NCBI GenBank assembly: GCA_039190005.1
Contig: JBCCYM010000005.1
Span: 1 to 55,940 of the forward strand
DNA length: 55,940 nucleotides
Source: Pseudomonadota bacterium
GTDB taxonomy: Bacteria > Pseudomonadota > Gammaproteobacteria > UBA12402
Direction of reading: 5' to 3'
Positions 1-34,168 of the stretch are shown in pieces (position 1 is the stretch's first letter; each line of letters opens with the position of its first letter). The position numbers and the translations under genes were made by a program. The notes below the pieces were generated by a model. That model did not search any database. It was not told where the DNA came from and saw nothing but the letters and a program-made list of their open reading frames with translations.

Positions 1-175
1 ATGCCTTAAAGACGTTCAAAGGGCGGGCCCTGAATTCATCGAAGGGCATAGCAGGTTTTTCGAAAGCAGGTTTGGGCTTCGACAAGCTCAGCCATCTATG
101 CCTTAAAGACGTTCAAAGGACGGTCCCTGAGCCTGCTTGCCCTGAGCCTGTCGAAGGGTCGAAGAGTCGAAGGGT
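1..175. repeat. Composite cluster of REP-like family-A units (CCCTGAGCYTGTCGAAGGG), including a nested copy; may continue left of the window
   Basis: Units at 28-46 (degenerate), 75-93 (GGCT/AGCC variant) and 125-174 (nested). 22-bp direct repeat at 1-22 and 98-119. Homologous to 16349-16491. Confidence 0.9.
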
Positions 176-180
176 GAGGT

Positions 181-1995
181 TTAACCATGAAATTGTTGAT
201 AGATTTTACCAGCAAGCTTTTTATCAATACCGGGCACTCGCGCCAAATCTTCAATACTAGCCTCTTTAACCCCTTGAATACCGGCAAAGAATTGCAGTAA
301 TTTCTGCCGTCGTTTTTCACCCACACCCGGCACTAATTCCAATACGGAGTGTTTTCGCTTATTGTCACGTTGATGGCGATGGCCGGAAATCGCGAACCGA
401 TGCGCTTCATCGCGTGCCTGCAACAATAGTCGAATACCGATATTCTCCGGCATAAAATCCAGCGGGCGTGTCTTTCCCGCTAAAAAAATCTGCTCAAAAC
501 CAACCTTACGGGTTTTGCCCTTGGCAATGCCTAATAAGGCGATATCATCAATCTGTAATTCTTCCAAGGCGTTCATTGCCTGTTTTAACTGGTTGCGCCC
601 ACCATCAATAATGACCACATCCGGCAGCACCGCTTCTTGCAGTCTAAGTTTTTTATAATGACGCAACACCGCTTGATAGATGGCGGCATAATCATCTCCT
701 GGGGTAATACCTTGAATATTAAAACGCCGATAATCTTTTTTAATCGGCCCGGCTGCGCCAAAGACCACACAGGAGGCGACAGTCTGTTCGCCTTGGGTAT
801 GACTAATATCAAAACATTCAATCCGTTGTGGTGTTTGGGTTAAACCCAGTATATCTTGAATAGCTTCCAATTGCTTGAGCAATGTCGCGCGCGATAATAA
901 ACGGGTATTTAAACTGTCTTTGGCGTTTAATGTCGCCATTTGAATTAAATTCAATTTAGCACCACGCCGCGGACAACTTATTTTTATCATCTTACCGGTT
1001 TTATGCTGTATGCTTTGAGCCAGCAAAGCGGCATCATCTAACGCCTGGGAAACTAGAATTTCCTTGGGCAATTGATGGTCATTATCCAAATAATAATGCG
1101 ATAAAAAGTGAGGCAATATATCTTGCGTTTCACTATTTTTTGGCAACTGGGGGAAAAAATTCTGTTTGCCGATAATATGACCGGCACGAATTAACAACAA
1201 TTGCACACAGCTTATGTTGGCCTTACTGACTAACGCGATTACATCGACATCACCAACATCCGTTGCCACATGTTGACTTGCTTGCAGTTTACGCAAATCA
1301 GCAATTTGATCGCGGTATTTCATTGCCAGTTCATAATGTTGCTGATCAGAGGCCTGCCGCATTTTTTTTAATAAGTCATTTATAATTTGTTCATTCTTAC
1401 CGGTTAATAACAACTGCGCGTGGTCGACATCTTTTTGATAATCCGCAGCGGCAATATAATTGACACAGGGCGCGGAACAGCGTTTAATCTGATATTGCAA
1501 ACAAGGACGCTGACGGTTTTTGAAAAATGTGTCACGACATTGACGTATCTTAAAAATTTTCTGTATCAGCTGTAAGGTCTGATGGACCGCGGTGGTTGAC
1601 GGATAAGGTCCAAAAAATTTTCCTTTTTTACCCTGGGTACTGCCACGATAAAAACTGAAACGCGGAAATTGATGCTGGCTGGATAAATAAATATAGGGAT
1701 AACTTTTATCGTCTCGAAATAAAATATTATAGCGCGGATGAAATTTTTTAATTAGATGGCTTTCAAGAATTAACGCTTCGTACTCTGTTCGGGTAATAAT
1801 GACTTTTATCGCATGAATTTGTTTAACCAGTGCTTGTGTTTTAGTGCTGGCATGGGTTTTAACAAAATAGCTGGAAACGCGGTTTTTTAAATTTTTAGCT
1901 TTACCGACATAGAGTATTTTGTCGTGTTTATCAAACATTTGATAAACACCAGGCTTAGTGCTTAATGTTTTGAGAAACGCTTTATAATCAAACAT
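181..1995 (-). CDS. uvrC: Excinuclease ABC subunit C
   Basis: GIY-YIG N-terminus (PGVYQM..LYVGKAKNLKNRVSSYF), Cys cluster, RIECFDISH, DGG motif, C-terminal HhH. Confidence 0.98.
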   Translation of the reverse strand: MFDYKAFLKTLSTKPGVYQMFDKHDKILYVGKAKNLKNRVSSYFVKTHASTKTQALVKQIHAIKVIITRTEYEALILESHLIKKFHPRYNILFRDDKSYPYIYLSSQHQFPRFSFYRGSTQGKKGKFFGPYPSTTAVHQTLQLIQKIFKIRQCRDTFFKNRQRPCLQYQIKRCSAPCVNYIAAADYQKDVDHAQLLLTGKNEQIINDLLKKMRQASDQQHYELAMKYRDQIADLRKLQASQHVATDVGDVDVIALVSKANISCVQLLLIRAGHIIGKQNFFPQLPKNSETQDILPHFLSHYYLDNDHQLPKEILVSQALDDAALLAQSIQHKTGKMIKISCPRRGAKLNLIQMATLNAKDSLNTRLLSRATLLKQLEAIQDILGLTQTPQRIECFDISHTQGEQTVASCVVFGAAGPIKKDYRRFNIQGITPGDDYAAIYQAVLRHYKKLRLQEAVLPDVVIIDGGRNQLKQAMNALEELQIDDIALLGIAKGKTRKVGFEQIFLAGKTRPLDFMPENIGIRLLLQARDEAHRFAISGHRHQRDNKRKHSVLELVPGVGEKRRQKLLQFFAGIQGVKEASIEDLARVPGIDKKLAGKIYQQFHG

Positions 1996-6634: not shown

Positions 6635-6846
6635 ATGCTTAAAATTACAGTTAGCAGCAAGATGAGAGCGCAACCTTTTATGCCTTCGACCCTTCGACGA
6701 GCTCAGGGACCGCCCTTCGATAAGCTCAGGGACACCCACACATAAAGATGGCTGAGCTTGTCGAAGCCAAACAACCCCTTTCAACCCTTCGACAAGCTCA
6801 GGAACCGCCCTTCGACAGGCTCAGGGACCGCTGTGGTTTTAAGGAT
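6635..6846. repeat. Cluster of five family-A units bounded by imperfect 16-bp terminal inverted repeats
   Basis: Units at 6690, 6713, 6750 (inverted GGCT/AGCC variant), 6785 and 6808. Ends ATGCTTAAAATTACAG and CTGTGGTTTTAAGGAT are 13/16 complementary. Confidence 0.85.
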
Positions 6847-6851
6847 TAAAA

Positions 6852-6880
6852 TTGCCACTGCTCAGAAAACATGCTAAATT
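6852..6880 (+). promoter_or_regulatory. Putative sigma70 promoter for the DUF378/phosphatase genes
   Basis: TTGCCA-17 bp-TAAATT with TG extension. Confidence 0.4.
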
Positions 6881-11429: not shown

Positions 11430-11526
11430 AACCTAAAAACTGCACCAGATCAATCTGAGATCCCTGAGCTTGTCGAAGGGACCACCCTTCGACGGGCTCA
11501 GGGACCACTGCGGTTTTGTAGGATTA
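11430..11526. repeat. Inverted doublet of family-A units inside imperfect terminal inverted repeats
   Basis: Units at 11462-11480 and 11485-11503 (inverted); ends AACCTAAAAACTGCA and TGCGGTTTTGTAGGATT. Confidence 0.85.
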
Positions 11527-11673
11527 AAATCTCCCCTGTAATTCATTCAAAGCAAAATAATACCGATTGTAACGAAATATAACAATTATAATTTTTCTTT
11601 GAATTAAAGATTTCATTCGCTTATAATTATGCCTTAATTCACTTAATCCATATTTAATGAGGAAATACATACA

Positions 11674-16348: not shown

Positions 16349-16513
16349 CCTTGAACTCGTCAAAAAGCATAACAAGCCTTCCCAAAGCATTCTTTGGCTT
16401 CGACAAGCTCAGCCATCTATCTATATATCGAGCCTGTCAAAGGACGGTCCCTGAGCCTGCTTGCCCTGAGCCTGTCGAAGGGTCGAAGGGTGGTCCCTGA
16501 GCTTGTCGAAGGG
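16349..16513. repeat. Composite family-A cluster homologous to 28-175
   Basis: Degenerate unit at 16349, GGCT variant at 16396-16414, nested unit at 16449-16490, extra unit at 16495-16513. Confidence 0.9.
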
Positions 16514-16520
16514 TATAATA

Positions 16521-28446: not shown

Positions 28447-29304
28447 TTATATAGCCAGGGTGATTTTTTGCTTAAATGCTCGTATTTTTTCCTGTAGTCT
28501 TTTTTTCTCATCGTCAGAACAGGATATATCAGCAATAGCTTTATGGTATCTGTTTAAACAATAAAGATATAATCTGGGTAAAAAAATCTTTATCTGTTCG
28601 ACATTATAATCGACAACTTGATTAGGATCGGTATTTCTCAGTTTATAGGCAACATTGATGATCTCAGAAACTTCTTCTGCTAGCGCTATTTTCCAGCTTT
28701 GATTGAAATGATTAACAGCATCTTTGTTAGATCCAATGGTATTCGGATAATCTATAGTAAAAATCAGTCTCACCGGAAATAACACAAATTTAGTGAAATA
28801 GCGTGAGCCTTTTTCTAAAATAATTTGTGGATTTCGCGTGAGTTCAATTCGTTTTTCTTCACTCAACATATAACTCAACATGAATTCAGCACTTTCGATA
28901 ATTAAATCTTCCGCTGTTGGTTCAGGTAAGCGATATCGGCGATCTTCACCCGATAATATAACAGCGTGTCGGATAAAATCGAGTCTATCTAAGGCTGGAA
29001 ATCTTCCTTTTCCATTTGCAAAATCATGGGTATGATAACTCGACCAGAACACAGATAATCTATTGGCATAATCATATTTTGATTTTTTTAACTTCTCCCA
29101 TAATGTGTTCATGACATCCGCATCTGATTCTAAAATATTATCTAGCATGATTGCGATATCAACATCACTGCATAAAGAGAAATCGCCGTGTGTGCCTAAG
29201 CTTCCAAGTTTAAACATAGTCATCACTCTATTTTTGAAAGTCTTTTGTATTTCTTGTATTGAATACTCAATAAGTGGTATAGCTTGGCTGGAAAAATGAT
29301 GCAT
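28447..29304 (-). CDS. Pol-beta superfamily nucleotidyltransferase-like protein
   Basis: LGSLGTHGDFSLCSDVDIAI matches GS..DxD; predicted helical C-terminal half. Confidence 0.6.
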   Translation of the reverse strand: MHHFSSQAIPLIEYSIQEIQKTFKNRVMTMFKLGSLGTHGDFSLCSDVDIAIMLDNILESDADVMNTLWEKLKKSKYDYANRLSVFWSSYHTHDFANGKGRFPALDRLDFIRHAVILSGEDRRYRLPEPTAEDLIIESAEFMLSYMLSEEKRIELTRNPQIILEKGSRYFTKFVLFPVRLIFTIDYPNTIGSNKDAVNHFNQSWKIALAEEVSEIINVAYKLRNTDPNQVVDYNVEQIKIFLPRLYLYCLNRYHKAIADISCSDDEKKRLQEKIRAFKQKITLAI

Positions 29305-29418
29305 TTTAATCCCTAATTAAATTTCTAATTTGATTAAATTGAATTATATAGCTATTTCAAAAATAAACCAAATGCTATGAGGTAGGTGTTGAATAAAACT
29401 AACTCGCACTTTTCCCCT

Positions 29419-29503
29419 TCATTCCCGCGAAGGCGGGAATCCAGAGAACAAACCACAGGCATAAACATTTTTCTCCTGGATTCCCGCCTTCGCGGGAATG
29501 ACG
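29419..29503. repeat. Family-B REP doublet (CGTCATTCCCGCGAAGGCGGGAATCC type, REPIN-like)
   Basis: 26-bp perfect inverted arms at 29419-29444 and 29476-29501, each containing ATTCCC-N8-GGGAAT. Confidence 0.92.
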
Positions 29504-29520
29504 AGATGACTTTAAGTAAG

Positions 29521-29558
29521 ATAAACAAAAAGCCCTCAGTTGAGGGCTTTTTGTTTAT
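29521..29558. terminator. Bidirectional Rho-independent terminator
   Basis: Perfect 18-bp inverted repeat ATAAACAAAAAGCCCTCA-GT-TGAGGGCTTTTTGTTTAT. Confidence 0.88.
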
Positions 29559-29667
29559 ACCTTATTTTGTTTAACTTACATAACCGTCTTCAGTTTTATT
29601 ATAGAACAAAATTTTAATATTGCTGGAATAAATTAAAATATTTCAAACTTAATCTTTCATCAAGCTG

Positions 29668-30789
29668 TTATTGCTCACTATCTGAAAAATAAATACCGCC
29701 TAATACGGCTGATTGTCGGCTACCGGTAATAGCTGTTAAATCAATTTTTGACTTGGAAAGTGTTTGTGCCGCAAACCAGGCAAATGCCATGGCTTCGACA
29801 GCATCTGGATCAACACCATAGTCGGCTATACTTTTTACCGAACAAGGGGATAAATAATGTTGTAACAATGACATAAGATGATTATTGTAAACACCACCAC
29901 CGGAGATGACTACTTCAATTTCTGTCCCAACATAGTTATGAATTGCTTTTGCTATCGACAATGCCGTTAATGCGGTTAAGCTTGCTTGCACATCTTGTGG
30001 TGATAATTTCTCATCGGTTTGATCTAAATAACGTGATAAGTAATTAAGATTAAAGTATTCACGACCTGTGCTTTTTGGTGGTGAACGCTTAAAATAACTA
30101 TCGTCTAAAAACTGCTGCAATAATTTATCATTCATTTTACCACTCGCTGCCCAAGTGCCATCTTTATCAAAATACCCTTCATGATGTTGATGATACCAGC
30201 TATCTAATAACACATTACCCGGACCACTATCAAAGCCTAAAATAGGCTGCTGCGGATCGGTTGGTAAATAAGTAATATTAGCCATACCGCCAATATTTAC
30301 CACAGCATACGCTTGGTCATGACCAAGCAATTGACGATGAAAAACCGGTGCCAGTGGCGCGCCCTGACCACCATAAACAAGGTCTTTACGGCGAAAATCA
30401 GCAACTGTAGTAATACCAGTTAATGCCGCGATAGTATTTGGGTCACCTATTTGCGTGGTAAATGGTATATCATTATCCGGATAGTGTCTTACTGTTTGCC
30501 CGTGACTACCGATCGCGTGAATATCACCGGCAGTTATGCCAGATTGATTTAATATAGTATTTACAGCTTCCGCAAATAATCGTCCCAATAAAACATCGGT
30601 ACGCGCTAAATCTTCAATCGCTGCGGTACCGTGGCTTAATGCTAATACAGATTGTCGTAACGATGATGGAAAAGGATGCGTGTGTGTGGCAACACAATCT
30701 ATTTTATCTTTTAAGTCAATAATAGCGACATCAACGGCATCAACGCTCGTGCCAGATATAATACCCATGTAATATTGTTTATTTACCAT
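29668..30789 (-). CDS. anmK: Anhydro-N-acetylmuramic acid kinase
   Basis: SGTSVD, GSHGQT, DFRRKD, GGQGAPL, FDSGPGN and PPKSTGRE. Confidence 0.97.
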   Translation of the reverse strand: MVNKQYYMGIISGTSVDAVDVAIIDLKDKIDCVATHTHPFPSSLRQSVLALSHGTAAIEDLARTDVLLGRLFAEAVNTILNQSGITAGDIHAIGSHGQTVRHYPDNDIPFTTQIGDPNTIAALTGITTVADFRRKDLVYGGQGAPLAPVFHRQLLGHDQAYAVVNIGGMANITYLPTDPQQPILGFDSGPGNVLLDSWYHQHHEGYFDKDGTWAASGKMNDKLLQQFLDDSYFKRSPPKSTGREYFNLNYLSRYLDQTDEKLSPQDVQASLTALTALSIAKAIHNYVGTEIEVVISGGGVYNNHLMSLLQHYLSPCSVKSIADYGVDPDAVEAMAFAWFAAQTLSKSKIDLTAITGSRQSAVLGGIYFSDSEQ

Positions 30790-30794
30790 GAAAT

Positions 30795-32072
30795 TTAATC
30801 CACCATCTGCAAAGCACGATCTACTGCTGTAATTGTCTGTTCAATCACTGCGTCATCATGCACCGCTGATATAAAACAAGCTTCGTAGGCTGATGGCGGA
30901 AGATAAATCCCCTGCTCTAGCATGGCATGAAAAAATCGCGCAAACCGCTTGTTATCACAGGCTTTAATATCATTGTAATTCGTCAACATTTTTTCACCAA
31001 ACCAGAAACCGAGCATGCCACCTTCAACCCGACCATTCATGGCAATGCCGTAATGTTTGGCACGATCTAATATGCCCTGAATTAATTTTTCGCCTTGCTC
31101 AGTCAAACGTTGATGAAAATTGGCGTCGGCACTAATCAACTGCAATGTTTTTAATCCGGCAGCCATTGCCACCGGATTTCCCGACAGTGTGCCAGCTTGA
31201 TAAACCGGTCCCACTGGTGCGAGAATATTCATTATTTCACGACGCCCCCCCACGGCGCCAACCGGCATCCCGCCTCCGATAATCTTACCCAAGGTGGTAA
31301 TATCCGGGGTAAAGTTATATTTCTCCTGCGCGCCACCAAGCGCTACACGAAAACCGGTCATCACTTCATCAGCTATCAATAGACTGCCATGAGTATCACA
31401 TAATTTTCTTAGACCCGATAAAAAATTTGCTTGAGGCGCGATACAGTTAGCATTACCCACCACCGGTTCAAAAATAACCGCGGCAATGTCATCGCCATAC
31501 TCGGCAAATAAGGCGTTTACCTGATCTAGATCATTGTATTCAGCAACCAAGGTATGCTTAACCACATCTTCAGGCACACCAGCCGAACCCGGCAAACCCA
31601 AGGTTGCCACACCCGAACCGGCTTTAACCAACAGACTGTCTTCATGACCATGATAGCAACCATTAAATTTAATAATTTTATTCCGCCCGGTATAACCACG
31701 CGCTACGCGCAGCGCCGTCATAGTTGCTTCAGTCCCGGAGTTAGTAAAACGAATCCGTTCAATAGATGGCATCAAACTGATGACTTTTTCTGCCATATCA
31801 ATTTCACGTTCGGTGGCGGCACCAAAACTTAAACCCTGCGTGGCAACTTGTTGAACTTCGGCAATAATCTGCGGATGGGCATGACCAAGTATCATTGGCC
31901 CCCAAGAACCAACGTAATCAATATAACAACGGTCATTGTGATCATAAATATAAGGACCGCTGGCTCGCTTTATGAATACAGGCGTACCGCCCACGGCACT
32001 GAAACTACGTACCGGTGAATTCACACCACCAACAATACTTTTTTTGGCTCTGTCAAAAAGAAAATTAGTCAC
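30795..32072 (-). CDS. hemL: Glutamate-1-semialdehyde 2,1-aminomutase
   Basis: GGVNSPVR, NSGTEA, DEVMTGFR, GKIIGGG and YQAGTLSGNP. Confidence 0.98.
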   Translation of the reverse strand: MTNFLFDRAKKSIVGGVNSPVRSFSAVGGTPVFIKRASGPYIYDHNDRCYIDYVGSWGPMILGHAHPQIIAEVQQVATQGLSFGAATEREIDMAEKVISLMPSIERIRFTNSGTEATMTALRVARGYTGRNKIIKFNGCYHGHEDSLLVKAGSGVATLGLPGSAGVPEDVVKHTLVAEYNDLDQVNALFAEYGDDIAAVIFEPVVGNANCIAPQANFLSGLRKLCDTHGSLLIADEVMTGFRVALGGAQEKYNFTPDITTLGKIIGGGMPVGAVGGRREIMNILAPVGPVYQAGTLSGNPVAMAAGLKTLQLISADANFHQRLTEQGEKLIQGILDRAKHYGIAMNGRVEGGMLGFWFGEKMLTNYNDIKACDNKRFARFFHAMLEQGIYLPPSAYEACFISAVHDDAVIEQTITAVDRALQMVD

Positions 32073-32100
32073 AATTTTAATTCATTTATCGCTAATTCTC

Positions 32101-32227
32101 CGTCATTCCCGCGTCCCTTCGACAAGCTCAGGGTACAATCCGGAGAAAAAACTACAGGCACAAACATGTTGCTCCTCGATTTTATCCTCAGCTTGCCGAA
32201 GGACCCTGCCTGCGCGTGGGAATGACG
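32101..32227. repeat. Family-B doublet with a family-A unit in each arm (hybrid element)
   Basis: CGTCATTCCCGCG and GGGAATGACG ends; spacer homologous to that of 29419-29503; A units at 32115-32133 and 32185-32203. Confidence 0.88.
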
Positions 32228-32239
32228 AGGCATTTTTCA

Positions 32240-34168
32240 TCAGTGAAAAATATCTAACAATCGACCAGGAAGACTTTTTTCGCCTTCGCCACCAATAATT
32301 TTCTTACCGACATCTTGAACATTGGGCACCAGCAATTTCAACACCGCTTTATAATCAGGTTGAAAACTGAGCTTATCAAAAGTACCGTTTATTTTTACCG
32401 GCAATGATGGTGACGAGGATGAACTCTTAGCGCCCTTGACATTGATGAGCATATCAACGGTTTGTCTAGGCAAATTAACCTGTCCACCACCTTTAACATG
32501 GACCAAGGATGAAAGCAGACTCAAATTATCAGAAGACACCACACCTTGTCGAATCGGACCACTACCTGTTAAACTTGCGAATACAGTATCATTACCGGTT
32601 TTCTTGGGCGGCAAGCTTTTATTTTTCAATGCCTCAAGCACTTTTAAGTAATAAGCGATATTGACACCACGCATGACACCATTATTGACAGCAAAGGCAA
32701 AATTACCATTCATGTTGCTTAATATCGCTTGTTGATCAAAACCACTGCTATTTACTTTGACTTCAGCGTTTGCCGTACCCGACAGGCGGTTGAATTTATA
32801 CATATCATTAAGCAATGGCTGCACTTGCACACCTTTGAGTTTCTCATCAATACTCATTTTAGGTGTATTCCCGCGCGCGTCAAACTGTATAGACCCCTGA
32901 TACTGCCCCTGATAAAGGTTCGCGCTCAAAGGCGATATACTGATTAAACCATTATTGGCTTTAATCGTGGCGTTAACATTCTGCATCTTCGCTTTCATCG
33001 CGATCAATTGTTTGATGCTAATCTTACCATTGATGGTTAATTCTCTTAAACGTTGCAACAATTCTTGATTATCGTTAGCAGCGTTACCTGTTGTTGTGGA
33101 TCGCGCGGTCGATTGCGCTGTTGATCGATTCGCGGTGACTGTTTGTTTTTTAGAGGCTGTTGCCGAGTCATTGCTCATGTTTTTCATCCACTCAATATAG
33201 GGATCAAGATCGAGCTTATCAGACGCGAGATTAAATACGATATTCGGTCGTTTAAAATTCTTCACATCTAAATTACCGGTTACTTTATCTTGATTTAATG
33301 TCATGACCAAATCACTGATGTTCAAACTATCGGCTGTCATCACAATATCGCCCTCGATCGTGGCGCTCATTTTACCTTGAGGCAACTGTTTCCCCTGCCA
33401 GTTACTGGTAATTTTAACGGCTTTAAACGCGTGCTCATTTGTGTGTGGACTAATTTTTGCCTGCGCTTGGAAATTTATCGTCCCTGTTAAGGGTGGCTGA
33501 CTGCTATTAATGGCCAAAGAACCATTAATCGGGAACATTTGATCGCTCTCTATGTTTTTAGCGTTGAGGGCTAAATTTTTTATTGACGCGTACTGATTAT
33601 TTTGTAAATCACTCCAGTTAACCGTCACATTTTCCGCATTCAGTGCCGGTATCGAAAAATCAAATTTCTTCGCGCCGCCCGCTGATGTCGCGTTAGCGTC
33701 GTCTTTTGTTTCCTGCTTCTCGGTTTTCTGATCCACTGACGCCGATGTTTGTTCAAAGGCGGTAGACGCTGGGGGCTGCATGGTCCAATTATTTTTACCA
33801 GCTTTATCGCGCATTAAATTGACGGTTAAATCATTGACAGTAATTGTCGATGTATCCAGTTTACCTGATATTAAAGGTAAAAGTTTAATCCCCACGCCAG
33901 CATGTTTGAGGGTAATAAACGGTTTTTCGCCAAAACCTGGCGCGTTACTCAGTACAGCATCATTAATTTTGACACTGAAAGGAAATAAAGACCATTTTAA
34001 ATCGCCTTTTAATTGCAGCGTTCGCCCGGTAAGTTGATACACTTGTTTGCTGATGGTTGGCTTAAATCGGTTTGGATTAATGGTATTGATCAGCACAATA
34101 AAGGCGATAATCGCGATAATAATCAGGGCAATAATAGTATAAATGAGGTATTTGATGGCTTTTAACAT
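32240..34168 (-). CDS. asmA: AsmA family protein
   Basis: N-terminal TM followed by NPNRFK..I...V...TGR.L...G; beta-rich body; C-terminal LPVKINGT. Confidence 0.88.
   Translation of the reverse strand: MLKAIKYLIYTIIALIIIAIIAFIVLINTINPNRFKPTISKQVYQLTGRTLQLKGDLKWSLFPFSVKINDAVLSNAPGFGEKPFITLKHAGVGIKLLPLISGKLDTSTITVNDLTVNLMRDKAGKNNWTMQPPASTAFEQTSASVDQKTEKQETKDDANATSAGGAKKFDFSIPALNAENVTVNWSDLQNNQYASIKNLALNAKNIESDQMFPINGSLAINSSQPPLTGTINFQAQAKISPHTNEHAFKAVKITSNWQGKQLPQGKMSATIEGDIVMTADSLNISDLVMTLNQDKVTGNLDVKNFKRPNIVFNLASDKLDLDPYIEWMKNMSNDSATASKKQTVTANRSTAQSTARSTTTGNAANDNQELLQRLRELTINGKISIKQLIAMKAKMQNVNATIKANNGLISISPLSANLYQGQYQGSIQFDARGNTPKMSIDEKLKGVQVQPLLNDMYKFNRLSGTANAEVKVNSSGFDQQAILSNMNGNFAFAVNNGVMRGVNIAYYLKVLEALKNKSLPPKKTGNDTVFASLTGSGPIRQGVVSSDNLSLLSSLVHVKGGGQVNLPRQTVDMLINVKGAKSSSSSPSLPVKINGTFDKLSFQPDYKAVLKLLVPNVQDVGKKIIGGEGEKSLPGRLLDIFH

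Follow-up and report, generated by a model that had tools for sequence, protein, structure and literature searches.

A 23-nt repeat inside NTS-type inverted doublets at fixed registers, and two putative Ssn-like GIY-YIG nuclease genes, in a gammaproteobacterial genome

The BIMEs of Escherichia coli and the NIMEs of Neisseria are mosaics of short intergenic modules, and quasipalindrome correction is known from the replication-slippage literature as an intramolecular template switching. The closest system to the repeats analyzed here is that of the Neisseria transformation sequence (NTS) and its nuclease SsnA (Chenal et al., Nat Commun 2025; PMC11893778). The NTS has a 28-nt consensus, CGTCATTCCCGCGMAVGCGGGAATCYRG, that holds the dRS3 palindrome ATTCCC-N8-GGGAAT, and SsnA is a GIY-YIG protein of 94 aa which, as described in that paper, binds the NTS hairpin only as single-stranded DNA (ssDNA) and cuts a few nucleotides upstream, the binding and the upstream cutting being published for four homologues (PMC11893778). 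The rise of NTS-like repeats to hundreds of copies and the role of the nucleases outside Neisseria are left open by the same work (PMC11893778).

The window studied here (the whole stretch of DNA that was analyzed, 55,940 nucleotides) belongs to a gammaproteobacterial genome of 1.81 Mb, G000. Two of its inverted doublets of a palindromic repeat, family B, are compared below; one of them carries a module of a second repeat, family A, in each arm. The sequence-only reading had drawn attention to this hybrid and to an uninvaded copy of it, and its coordinates and strings were correct, with the clean doublet spanning 29417-29505. The features of both doublets and the neighbors of the hybrid are the following.

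29417..29505, no strand: uninvaded doublet with the same ends as the hybrid; its arms are perfect mirrors
29417-29444, plus strand: NTS arm of the clean doublet, one mismatch to the NTS consensus
29476-29503, minus strand: NTS arm of the clean doublet, exact NTS consensus
30795-32072, minus strand: HemL-like ORF, neighbor of the hybrid
32101..32227, no strand: hybrid doublet of 127 bases, with two inverted family-B (NTS) arms, one A module in each, and a 42-nt spacer
32101..32113, plus strand: left arm, the NTS 5' half CGTCATTCCCGCG of 13 nt; loop and 3' stem (8 nt) absent
32114..32136, plus strand: left A module TCCCTTCGACAAGCTCAGGGTAC, 23 nt, sub-variant GGGTAC
32137-32139: AAT between the left A module and the spacer
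32140..32181, plus strand: spacer of 42 nt, of the doublet-family type
32182..32203, minus strand: right A module TTATCCTCAGCTTGCCGAAGGA, 22 nt, mirrored reading TCCTTCGGCAAGCTGAGGATAA, sub-variant GGATAA
32204..32227, minus strand: right arm, a complete but degenerate NTS hairpin, mirrored CGTCATTCCCACGCGCAGGCAGGG, with two extra T's
32240-34168, minus strand: AsmA-like ORF, the other neighbor of the hybrid

The hybrid is intergenic and lies in the 167-nt gap from the stop of the AsmA-like ORF to the start of the HemL-like ORF. Its left A module stands where the clean arm has the 8 nt AAGGCGGG, and its right A module lies between the NTS hairpin and AATC, which is the register called class 3 below. 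Neither arm of the hybrid is an intact NTS, the left one having the first 13 nt only and the right one having its AATC foot split off by A, and the spacer equals that of the clean copy (29417-29505) at 35 of 42 positions. As ssDNA, the hybrid is predicted to form a single long imperfect hairpin in which the two A modules pair with each other (DNA fold, -27.8 kcal/mol, z -4.4), and the clean doublet gave -36.7 kcal/mol (z -13). Directly past the clean doublet, at 29531-29552 and between two minus-strand genes, there is a terminator-like hairpin, AAAAAGCCCTCAGTTGAGGGCTTTTT. An Rfam search over 29300-32300 returned nothing at the gathering score; weak sub-threshold sRNA and leader matches at this terminator-like hairpin are probably due to it.

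By its sequence, family B is a known repeat that agrees with the 28-nt NTS/dRS3 motif of PMC11893778. The genome contains the NTS consensus 38 times exactly and 64 times with one mismatch, against 0 for the reversed-pattern control, and 77 palindromes of this type were counted. A B 10-mer (up to one mismatch) has 13 matches in the window against 3.18 expected, a number reached by no shuffle. The NTS copies are intergenic and mostly form inverted doublets round one conserved spacer; a blastn-short search gave 73 matches, 49 of them flanked by a B end on one side or both, with 2 clearly spurious among the 49. The doublets number approximately 46. The search pattern that PMC11893778 uses for Ssn-related motifs (SRMs), HGTCWY N0-2 YYVSBRH N0-5 WNVSBRG N0-2 RNCYNB, matched the genome 71 times, and 59 of these matches are family B. 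We also observed "stutter" half-NTS repeats with a 22-nt period (CGTCATTCCCGC plus about 10 pyrimidine-rich nucleotides) in 13 cases genome-wide; they form stacks immediately beyond the doublets, with a mirrored stack at the other end (C3:66551-66782 and C20:1138-1369). Going by the cut site published for SsnA (PMC11893778), this is the place at which the cut would be expected.

The unit of family A is 23 nt long: its 13-nt loop, TTCGACAAGCTCA, is conserved and held between CCC and GGG, and a 4-nt tail completes it. In the window, an A 16-mer (up to three mismatches) has 18 matches against 0.14 expected, and 0 of 100 shuffles reached 18. Genome-wide, 529 A loops (up to two mismatches) are found; besides tandem arrays and inverted pairs there is a more frequent "nested" form, in which A lies within A at a fixed 8/15 point; 95 of the 529 loops are followed by GGGCAAGCA[GA]GC, the commonest A context. 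None of the 71 SRM matches in the genome contains the A loop, and tandem A units match the SRM pattern on neither strand. The idea that A is a stable hairpin by itself was rejected (-1.6 and -0.7 kcal/mol, z -0.7 and +0.5). Nor does A have the terminal inverted repeats and target-site duplication of a miniature transposon of the MITE type, its 23-nt unit having a 3-4-bp stem and no consistent duplication at any of three registers. The distribution of an A 19-mer in the class is patchy, with at least one match in 23 of 121 genomes (a tally that takes in the unpublished genome G052), 313 matches in the genome studied and 41, 20 and 12 in the next three. A metagenome scan for TTCGACARGCTCAGGNNNNAATCC brought up an A sub-family that is widespread and has different stems. 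In a literature text search, no paper with either of the A 15-mers was found, and the 12-mers appeared in 29 papers, of which the 15 listed seem unrelated by title. A 27-mer, TCCTTCGACAAGCTCAGGATAAAATCC, was seen in at least three unrelated contexts on soil and sediment metagenome contigs (L063, L068, L069, L072, L080, L084, and others), in one of which AATCC seems to stand on either side of it, within another hairpin.

GIY-YIG matches were found at three places in the genome. One, in the window (1726-1953 region), belongs to an ORF of 605 aa, which going by size alone is taken to be UvrC; the others are two single-domain genes.

C8:37974-38267: GIY-YIG gene, 97 aa, about 110 nt from a B doublet
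C83:5522-5797: GIY-YIG gene, 92 aa, with A modules on both sides

Both products are small single-domain GIY-YIG proteins of about 94 aa, with PF01541 covering residues 7-78 of the 97-aa protein and 4-75 of the 92-aa one and no second domain in either, and they are 36% identical to each other. An NTS near an ssnA-like gene is thus found at the C8 gene, and a gene flanked by its own hairpin repeats at the C83 gene.

The C8 protein is, by its alignments, a member of a very large and tightly conserved family of GIY-YIG proteins of about 95 aa; its relatives are 91-127 aa long, the best 120 are 69-81% identical to it, and 7998 of 8000 scored candidates have E values of at most 1e-8. Proteins 74-76% identical to it occur in Thiohalomonas denitrificans and Nitrosomonas halophila, for which Supplementary Data 4 of the Ssn paper gives SsnA homologues more than 60% identical (PMC11893778; a species-level match). 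Relatives of the C83 protein at 60-67% identity were found at 14 of 15 loci on genome contigs, in Bacteroidota, Actinomycetota, and other MAGs, and the placement of the closest ones (L046-L059) in Bacteroidota and Actinomycetota suggests transfer between phyla. Chryseobacterium hagamense has a relative that is 66% identical to the C83 protein, and in Supplementary Data 4 this species is listed with a cd10448 homologue only (PMC11893778; again a species-level match). These links to SsnA and to cd10448 are indirect, and the C8 and C83 proteins are here called putative Ssn-like nucleases.

The repeats around the C83 homologues were also inspected. The strict A core is present near the gene at 4 of the 15 genome-contig loci, and among 29 non-self loci of the class it stands beside the gene in G063 only, with one match about 1.2 kb away in L037. 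Because the strict core was too rare near the C83 homologues, a relaxed loop pattern was used, and their flanks contain hairpins of the same loop type with co-varying stems. Within 300 nt of the gene, a relaxed A-type loop is present at 11 of 18 non-self loci and absent from 7, with a density of 3.5 per kb versus 0.22 per kb farther away. At L019 and L058, the A-type loop itself contains an extra hairpin. Family A thus accompanies, on both sides, the gene for a second and distantly related putative Ssn-like GIY-YIG nuclease, while B is the published NTS of SsnA; A is not an orphan parasite of an undescribed kind.

No match to a RAYT/Y1 transposase (PF01797) or to an IS110-type DEDD transposase (PF01548) was found in the genome (98% complete, 103 contigs), the control being positive in 6 of 14 genomes in both cases. 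We infer that no classical transposase is involved, although one may lie in unassembled sequence; the sole candidate enzymes that the analysis turned up are the two putative Ssn-like nucleases. The approximately 46 dispersed inverted palindromic doublets, each able to form one long hairpin between genes, are like REPINs of the REP-RAYT system (IS200/IS605-like Y1), but there is no Y1_Tnp domain in the genome and the associated genes code for GIY-YIG nucleases instead of HUH transposases. For the targets of the IS110 family (dRS3 serves as a phage and IS integration site), the difference is again the lack of an IS110-type DEDD transposase in this genome. The presence of several short intergenic modules (B, A, spacers, and further modules) in varied order is similar to BIMEs and NIMEs; unlike those, one module lies here inside the hairpin of another, at registers fixed to the nucleotide and in quanta of 23 nt. 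The system is most similar to NTS/SsnA (PMC11893778), with which it shares the 28-nt consensus, an adjoining gene for a single-domain GIY-YIG protein of about 95 aa, and abundant intergenic repeats, whereas here the repeats are mostly inverted doublets with a conserved spacer and a second repeat that falls outside the SRM pattern sits at fixed registers inside the NTS. Regarding SRMs nested in NTS, the words "nested" and "tandem" are absent from the main text of that paper (PMC11893778). Already known, then, are B with its nuclease (2025), doublets that are REPIN-like without a RAYT, and a mosaic like that of BIMEs and NIMEs; apparently new, as judged against the main text of PMC11893778, are the nesting of another Ssn-linked repeat within the NTS at registers that do not vary, its quantum of 23 nt, and NTS doublets whose arms mirror each other.

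For the genome-wide view of A inside B, we took the B 5' ends (GTCATTCCCGC, up to one mismatch) that had 70 nt of sequence (n = 203). An intact hairpin follows in 91, an A loop within 45 nt in 40, and a stutter half-copy in 13; the other 59 are mostly chance matches in genes, with some missed hairpin variants and, at the class-1 register, several forms of nested A. The A-bearing ends divide by offset into 15 with A- at 23, 10 with A+ at 16, 5 with A+ at 24, and 10 at six other offsets, and the first three groups were named as follows.

Class 1 (15/203): A- loop at offset 23; GCGCAGG, then the 23-nt unit, then CGGGAAT
Class 2 (10/203): A+ loop at offset 16; the unit in place of the loop and 3' stem, as in the left arm of the hybrid
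Class 3 (5/203): A+ loop at offset 24; GCGGG, then the 23-nt unit, then AATCC, as in the right arm of the hybrid

Class 2 corresponds to class 3 less 8 nt, and the A pieces added to B arms are always 23-nt units or multiples thereof. The position-specific association of A with B holds genome-wide. Recurrence at the same register with different A variants, which the sequence-only reading would take as support for targeted insertion, was observed, A lying in B arms at fixed registers and orientations and in different sub-variants; the positions of A within B are not random, clustering at 23, 16, and 24, and the hybrid is not unique, C38:4643 having the same build and C21:14363 an identical left module.

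Nineteen of the approximately 46 doublets have A in at least one arm, most of them in one arm only. Two-arm occupancy is seen in C5 (the hybrid at 32101-32227), C4, C37, C38, and C84, and in degenerate form in C64. The same registers are used in B arms that adjoin a second, unrelated type of spacer. A third 23-nt insert, the B-like mini-hairpin GCCCCTCCCCGCGAAAGCGGGGA, is found at the class-1 register in three NTS arms, C32:3583(+), C83:824(+), and C20:1460(+). In the AATCC-linked A sub-variants, 17 of 18 modules adjoin B-type spacers, and the genome has no free donor of them outside B-type contexts. The metagenome scan for TTCGACARGCTCAGGNNNNAATCC mentioned above, with 82 matches examined in 80 of 116 stretches, yielded no class-2/3 chimeras elsewhere, a B 5' end standing upstream of one match only. 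The class-1 junction (up to one mismatch) was found 10 times in G000 among 401 sampled genomes of the phylum, and single one-mismatch matches in two others are probably due to chance. A reading of the unit as a 19-nt core with a 4-nt target-site duplication was rejected, the 4-nt tails being the tails of the A arrays (ACCG/ACCA) and not copies of the target.

The ancestry of the modules in the hybrid was traced by comparing 15 spacer-adjacent A modules, which comprise three sub-variants: GGGAACA, found on either side of the spacer; GGGTA[C/A]A; and GGATAAA, confined to the right side (6/6). The left module of the hybrid is identical to the left module of C21:14363 at 24 of 24 positions, the 8 nt missing from the hybrid being still present in C21, and has two differences from that of C38:4643. 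The right module is nearest to the right-arm modules of C19, C36, and C83, with 3 differences out of 24. The two modules of the hybrid differ from each other, as had been noted from the sequence, at 6 of 24 positions, and they belong to separate sub-variants. C38:4643 has the same two-arm build as the hybrid, with a class-2 left arm and a class-3 right arm, and the spacer signature C[C/T]GGAGAAAAA[A/G]CTACAG is common to the hybrid, C21, and C38. Since both modules have closer kin in other doublets, an entry at 32101-32227 itself is unnecessary, and their more probable origin is inheritance or copying from other doublets, not insertion on the spot. Of the two independent, position-specific insertions originally proposed, the position specificity stands, but two insertions at 32101-32227 are unsupported, in view of the paralogues in C38 and C21 and of active arm copying. 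Three identical right modules are found in doublets with unlike spacers; these could be recent independent insertions. An empty-site comparison was attempted, and hemL matches in 30 relatives (species representatives, none of the same genus) were at most 78% identical over parts; a search of metagenome contigs with the AsmA-like protein found no relative.

The clean doublets indicate that one arm can be copied from the other. Perfectly mirrored arms are found in 12 of 15 clean doublets, with eight different cores among them, and the 15 have 3 arm differences in total against a shuffled mean of 20.1 and minimum of 11 (0 of 2000 shuffles as low). This test took the doublets in which both arms fit the uninterrupted-core pattern, C4:12565, C37:2761, and C1:33462 being among those dropped by offset. 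Mirroring is also seen with A present, as the A modules of C37 are identical (0/24 differences) and the arms of C38 are mirrored save for the 8-nt gap. Perfect mirrors in spite of eight different cores show arm-to-arm conversion, or regeneration of an arm from its partner, to be active in the doublet family. Such arms, kept as perfect mirrors even though the copies differ, resemble the products of quasipalindrome correction, which would account for the homogenization of arms but not for the first entry of A.

Taking these comparisons together, we favor, with a probability of about 0.55, a family of NTS doublets that A would have entered rarely, by templated copying, and that would then have spread the modules by its own multiplication and by conversion. 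A units would enter NTS hairpins at boundaries, either the junction of the loop and 3' stem or the 3' foot beside AATCC, probably at times when hairpins extruded as single strands are nicked or stalled. As the likely route we see a short templated copying from the abundant A arrays, aided by the shared CCGCC/TTCG and AATCC, and the composite arms would afterwards travel with the doublet and be subject to arm-to-arm and copy-to-copy conversion. The hybrid would then represent at least two acquisitions in the history of the family and not two insertions at 32101-32227. The center of B on one strand, CCCGCCTTCG, is nearly equal to the junction of tandem A units, ACCGCCCTTCG, and the class-3 foot AATCC is common to the widespread 27-mer A sub-family of the metagenomes; the strings shared at A/B junctions, however, are only 2-5 nt long. 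The fixed quantum of 23 nt, which includes the insert that is not A, and the absence of free AATCC-linked donors outside B contexts both suit a dedicated insertion of units better than a loose template switching. One genome with two nuclease-repeat pairs side by side may help to show how such repeats multiply, and its clean arms, its arms of classes 1, 2, and 3, and its tandem A units are substrates with which to ask whether spread is driven by Ssn, whether entry of A abolishes recognition by SsnA, and whether there is competition between the repeats. The 13-nt loop motif, found again in unrelated bacteria, also gains a name and a candidate partner protein.

It is possible, but in our opinion unlikely, that A is a tiny non-autonomous mobile element that enters NTS hairpins unit by unit and is moved in trans (for example, by an Ssn-like nuclease), with two insertions at the hybrid itself. 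This would agree with the fixed registers and orientation and the strict size of 23 nt or multiples, with one-arm occupancy being the commonest state of the occupied doublets, with the unlike sub-variants in the two arms of the hybrid, with the use of the same registers beside the second, unrelated spacer type and by the third 23-nt hairpin (class 1), and with the nesting of A in A at the 8/15 point in 95 of 529 loops. However, the modules have closer same-register relatives in other doublets and C38 repeats the build, so that descent or conversion suffices without local insertion; the junctions show no target-site duplication, and the class-1 junction is nearly confined to G000 among the 401 sampled genomes. 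GIY-YIG nucleases, moreover, cut DNA and are not known to join it.

A more daring version, which we put forward as a doubtful conjecture, is that the 23-nt hairpin units (A and the B-like mini-hairpin) would be cut from arrays as single strands by their own Ssn-like nuclease and pasted or copied, at defined registers, into the extruded docking-site hairpins of a rival nuclease. If true, Ssn-related repeats would multiply without a transposase, and one nuclease-repeat system would disable the sites of another.

A pure mosaic produced by misaligned recombination or replication slippage through shared strings, in the manner of BIMEs and NIMEs and without targeting or any role for the nucleases, seems to us quite improbable. 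The near identity of CCCGCCTTCG and ACCGCCCTTCG, the AATCC shared with the 27-mer sub-family, and the abundance of tandem, inverted, and partial A duplications speak for such a process, but it explains neither the constant 23-nt size of the non-A insert at the class-1 register nor the fact that each type of repeat surrounds its own nuclease gene. Still harder to sustain is a single insertion in one arm that was copied to the partner by conversion and diverged in place. Arm-to-arm copying is active in the family, and the mirrored modules of C37 (0/24) and the arms of C38, mirrored apart from the 8-nt gap, are examples of what it would produce. The arms of the hybrid, however, differ at 6 of 24 positions and in register (the 8-nt gap), and each module is nearer to the same-register modules of other doublets than to its partner, the left one being that of C21 at 24/24 and the right one having the GGC and GGATAA diagnostic of another lineage, which argues against this explanation.

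That the hybrid is a chimeric join of repeats made during assembly can practically be dismissed, for although assemblies break at repeats, and Logan contigs do end within the clean doublet at 29448/29477, the contig of a second assembler crosses the entire hybrid without differences and paralogues of the same build are present on other contigs. The contig in question, a Logan contig of run X1 (6690 nt), spans 29477-32400, with the hybrid and both flanking genes, at zero differences, so that the hybrid is not peculiar to one assembler; X1 is possibly the source sample, and its support for the assembly, which the sequence-only reading had left to the reads, is to that extent not independent. Logan contigs of runs X2-X4 contain a generic B doublet and conserved hemL pieces only and are uninformative on alleles and habitat. 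An apparent insertion behind 32114 and contig joints were considered as alleles and rejected, being paralogues aligned at 80% likeness.

Other modules accompany the A arrays. A composite A element, roughly 110 nt long, is present twice in the window (60-175 and 16390-16515) and is made of an A hairpin with a GGC...GCC stem, followed by ATCT(T)AT... and by a nested A block in inverted orientation; both copies start directly past similar ORF-end sequence, and genome-wide there are about 45 occurrences of the downstream GCCATCT... context. At 6826-6860 and 11503-11535 of the window, A arrays are followed by another conserved module, GGACC[GA]CTG[TC]GGTTTT[AG][AT]AGGATTAAAAT. Finally, the repeats at 29386-29574 and 31972-32298 give rise to spurious ORFs with the peptides SFPRRRESR...LDSRLRGNDE and HSRVPSTSSG...ARGNDE, and strings of this kind are common among the "hypothetical proteins" of many genomes.
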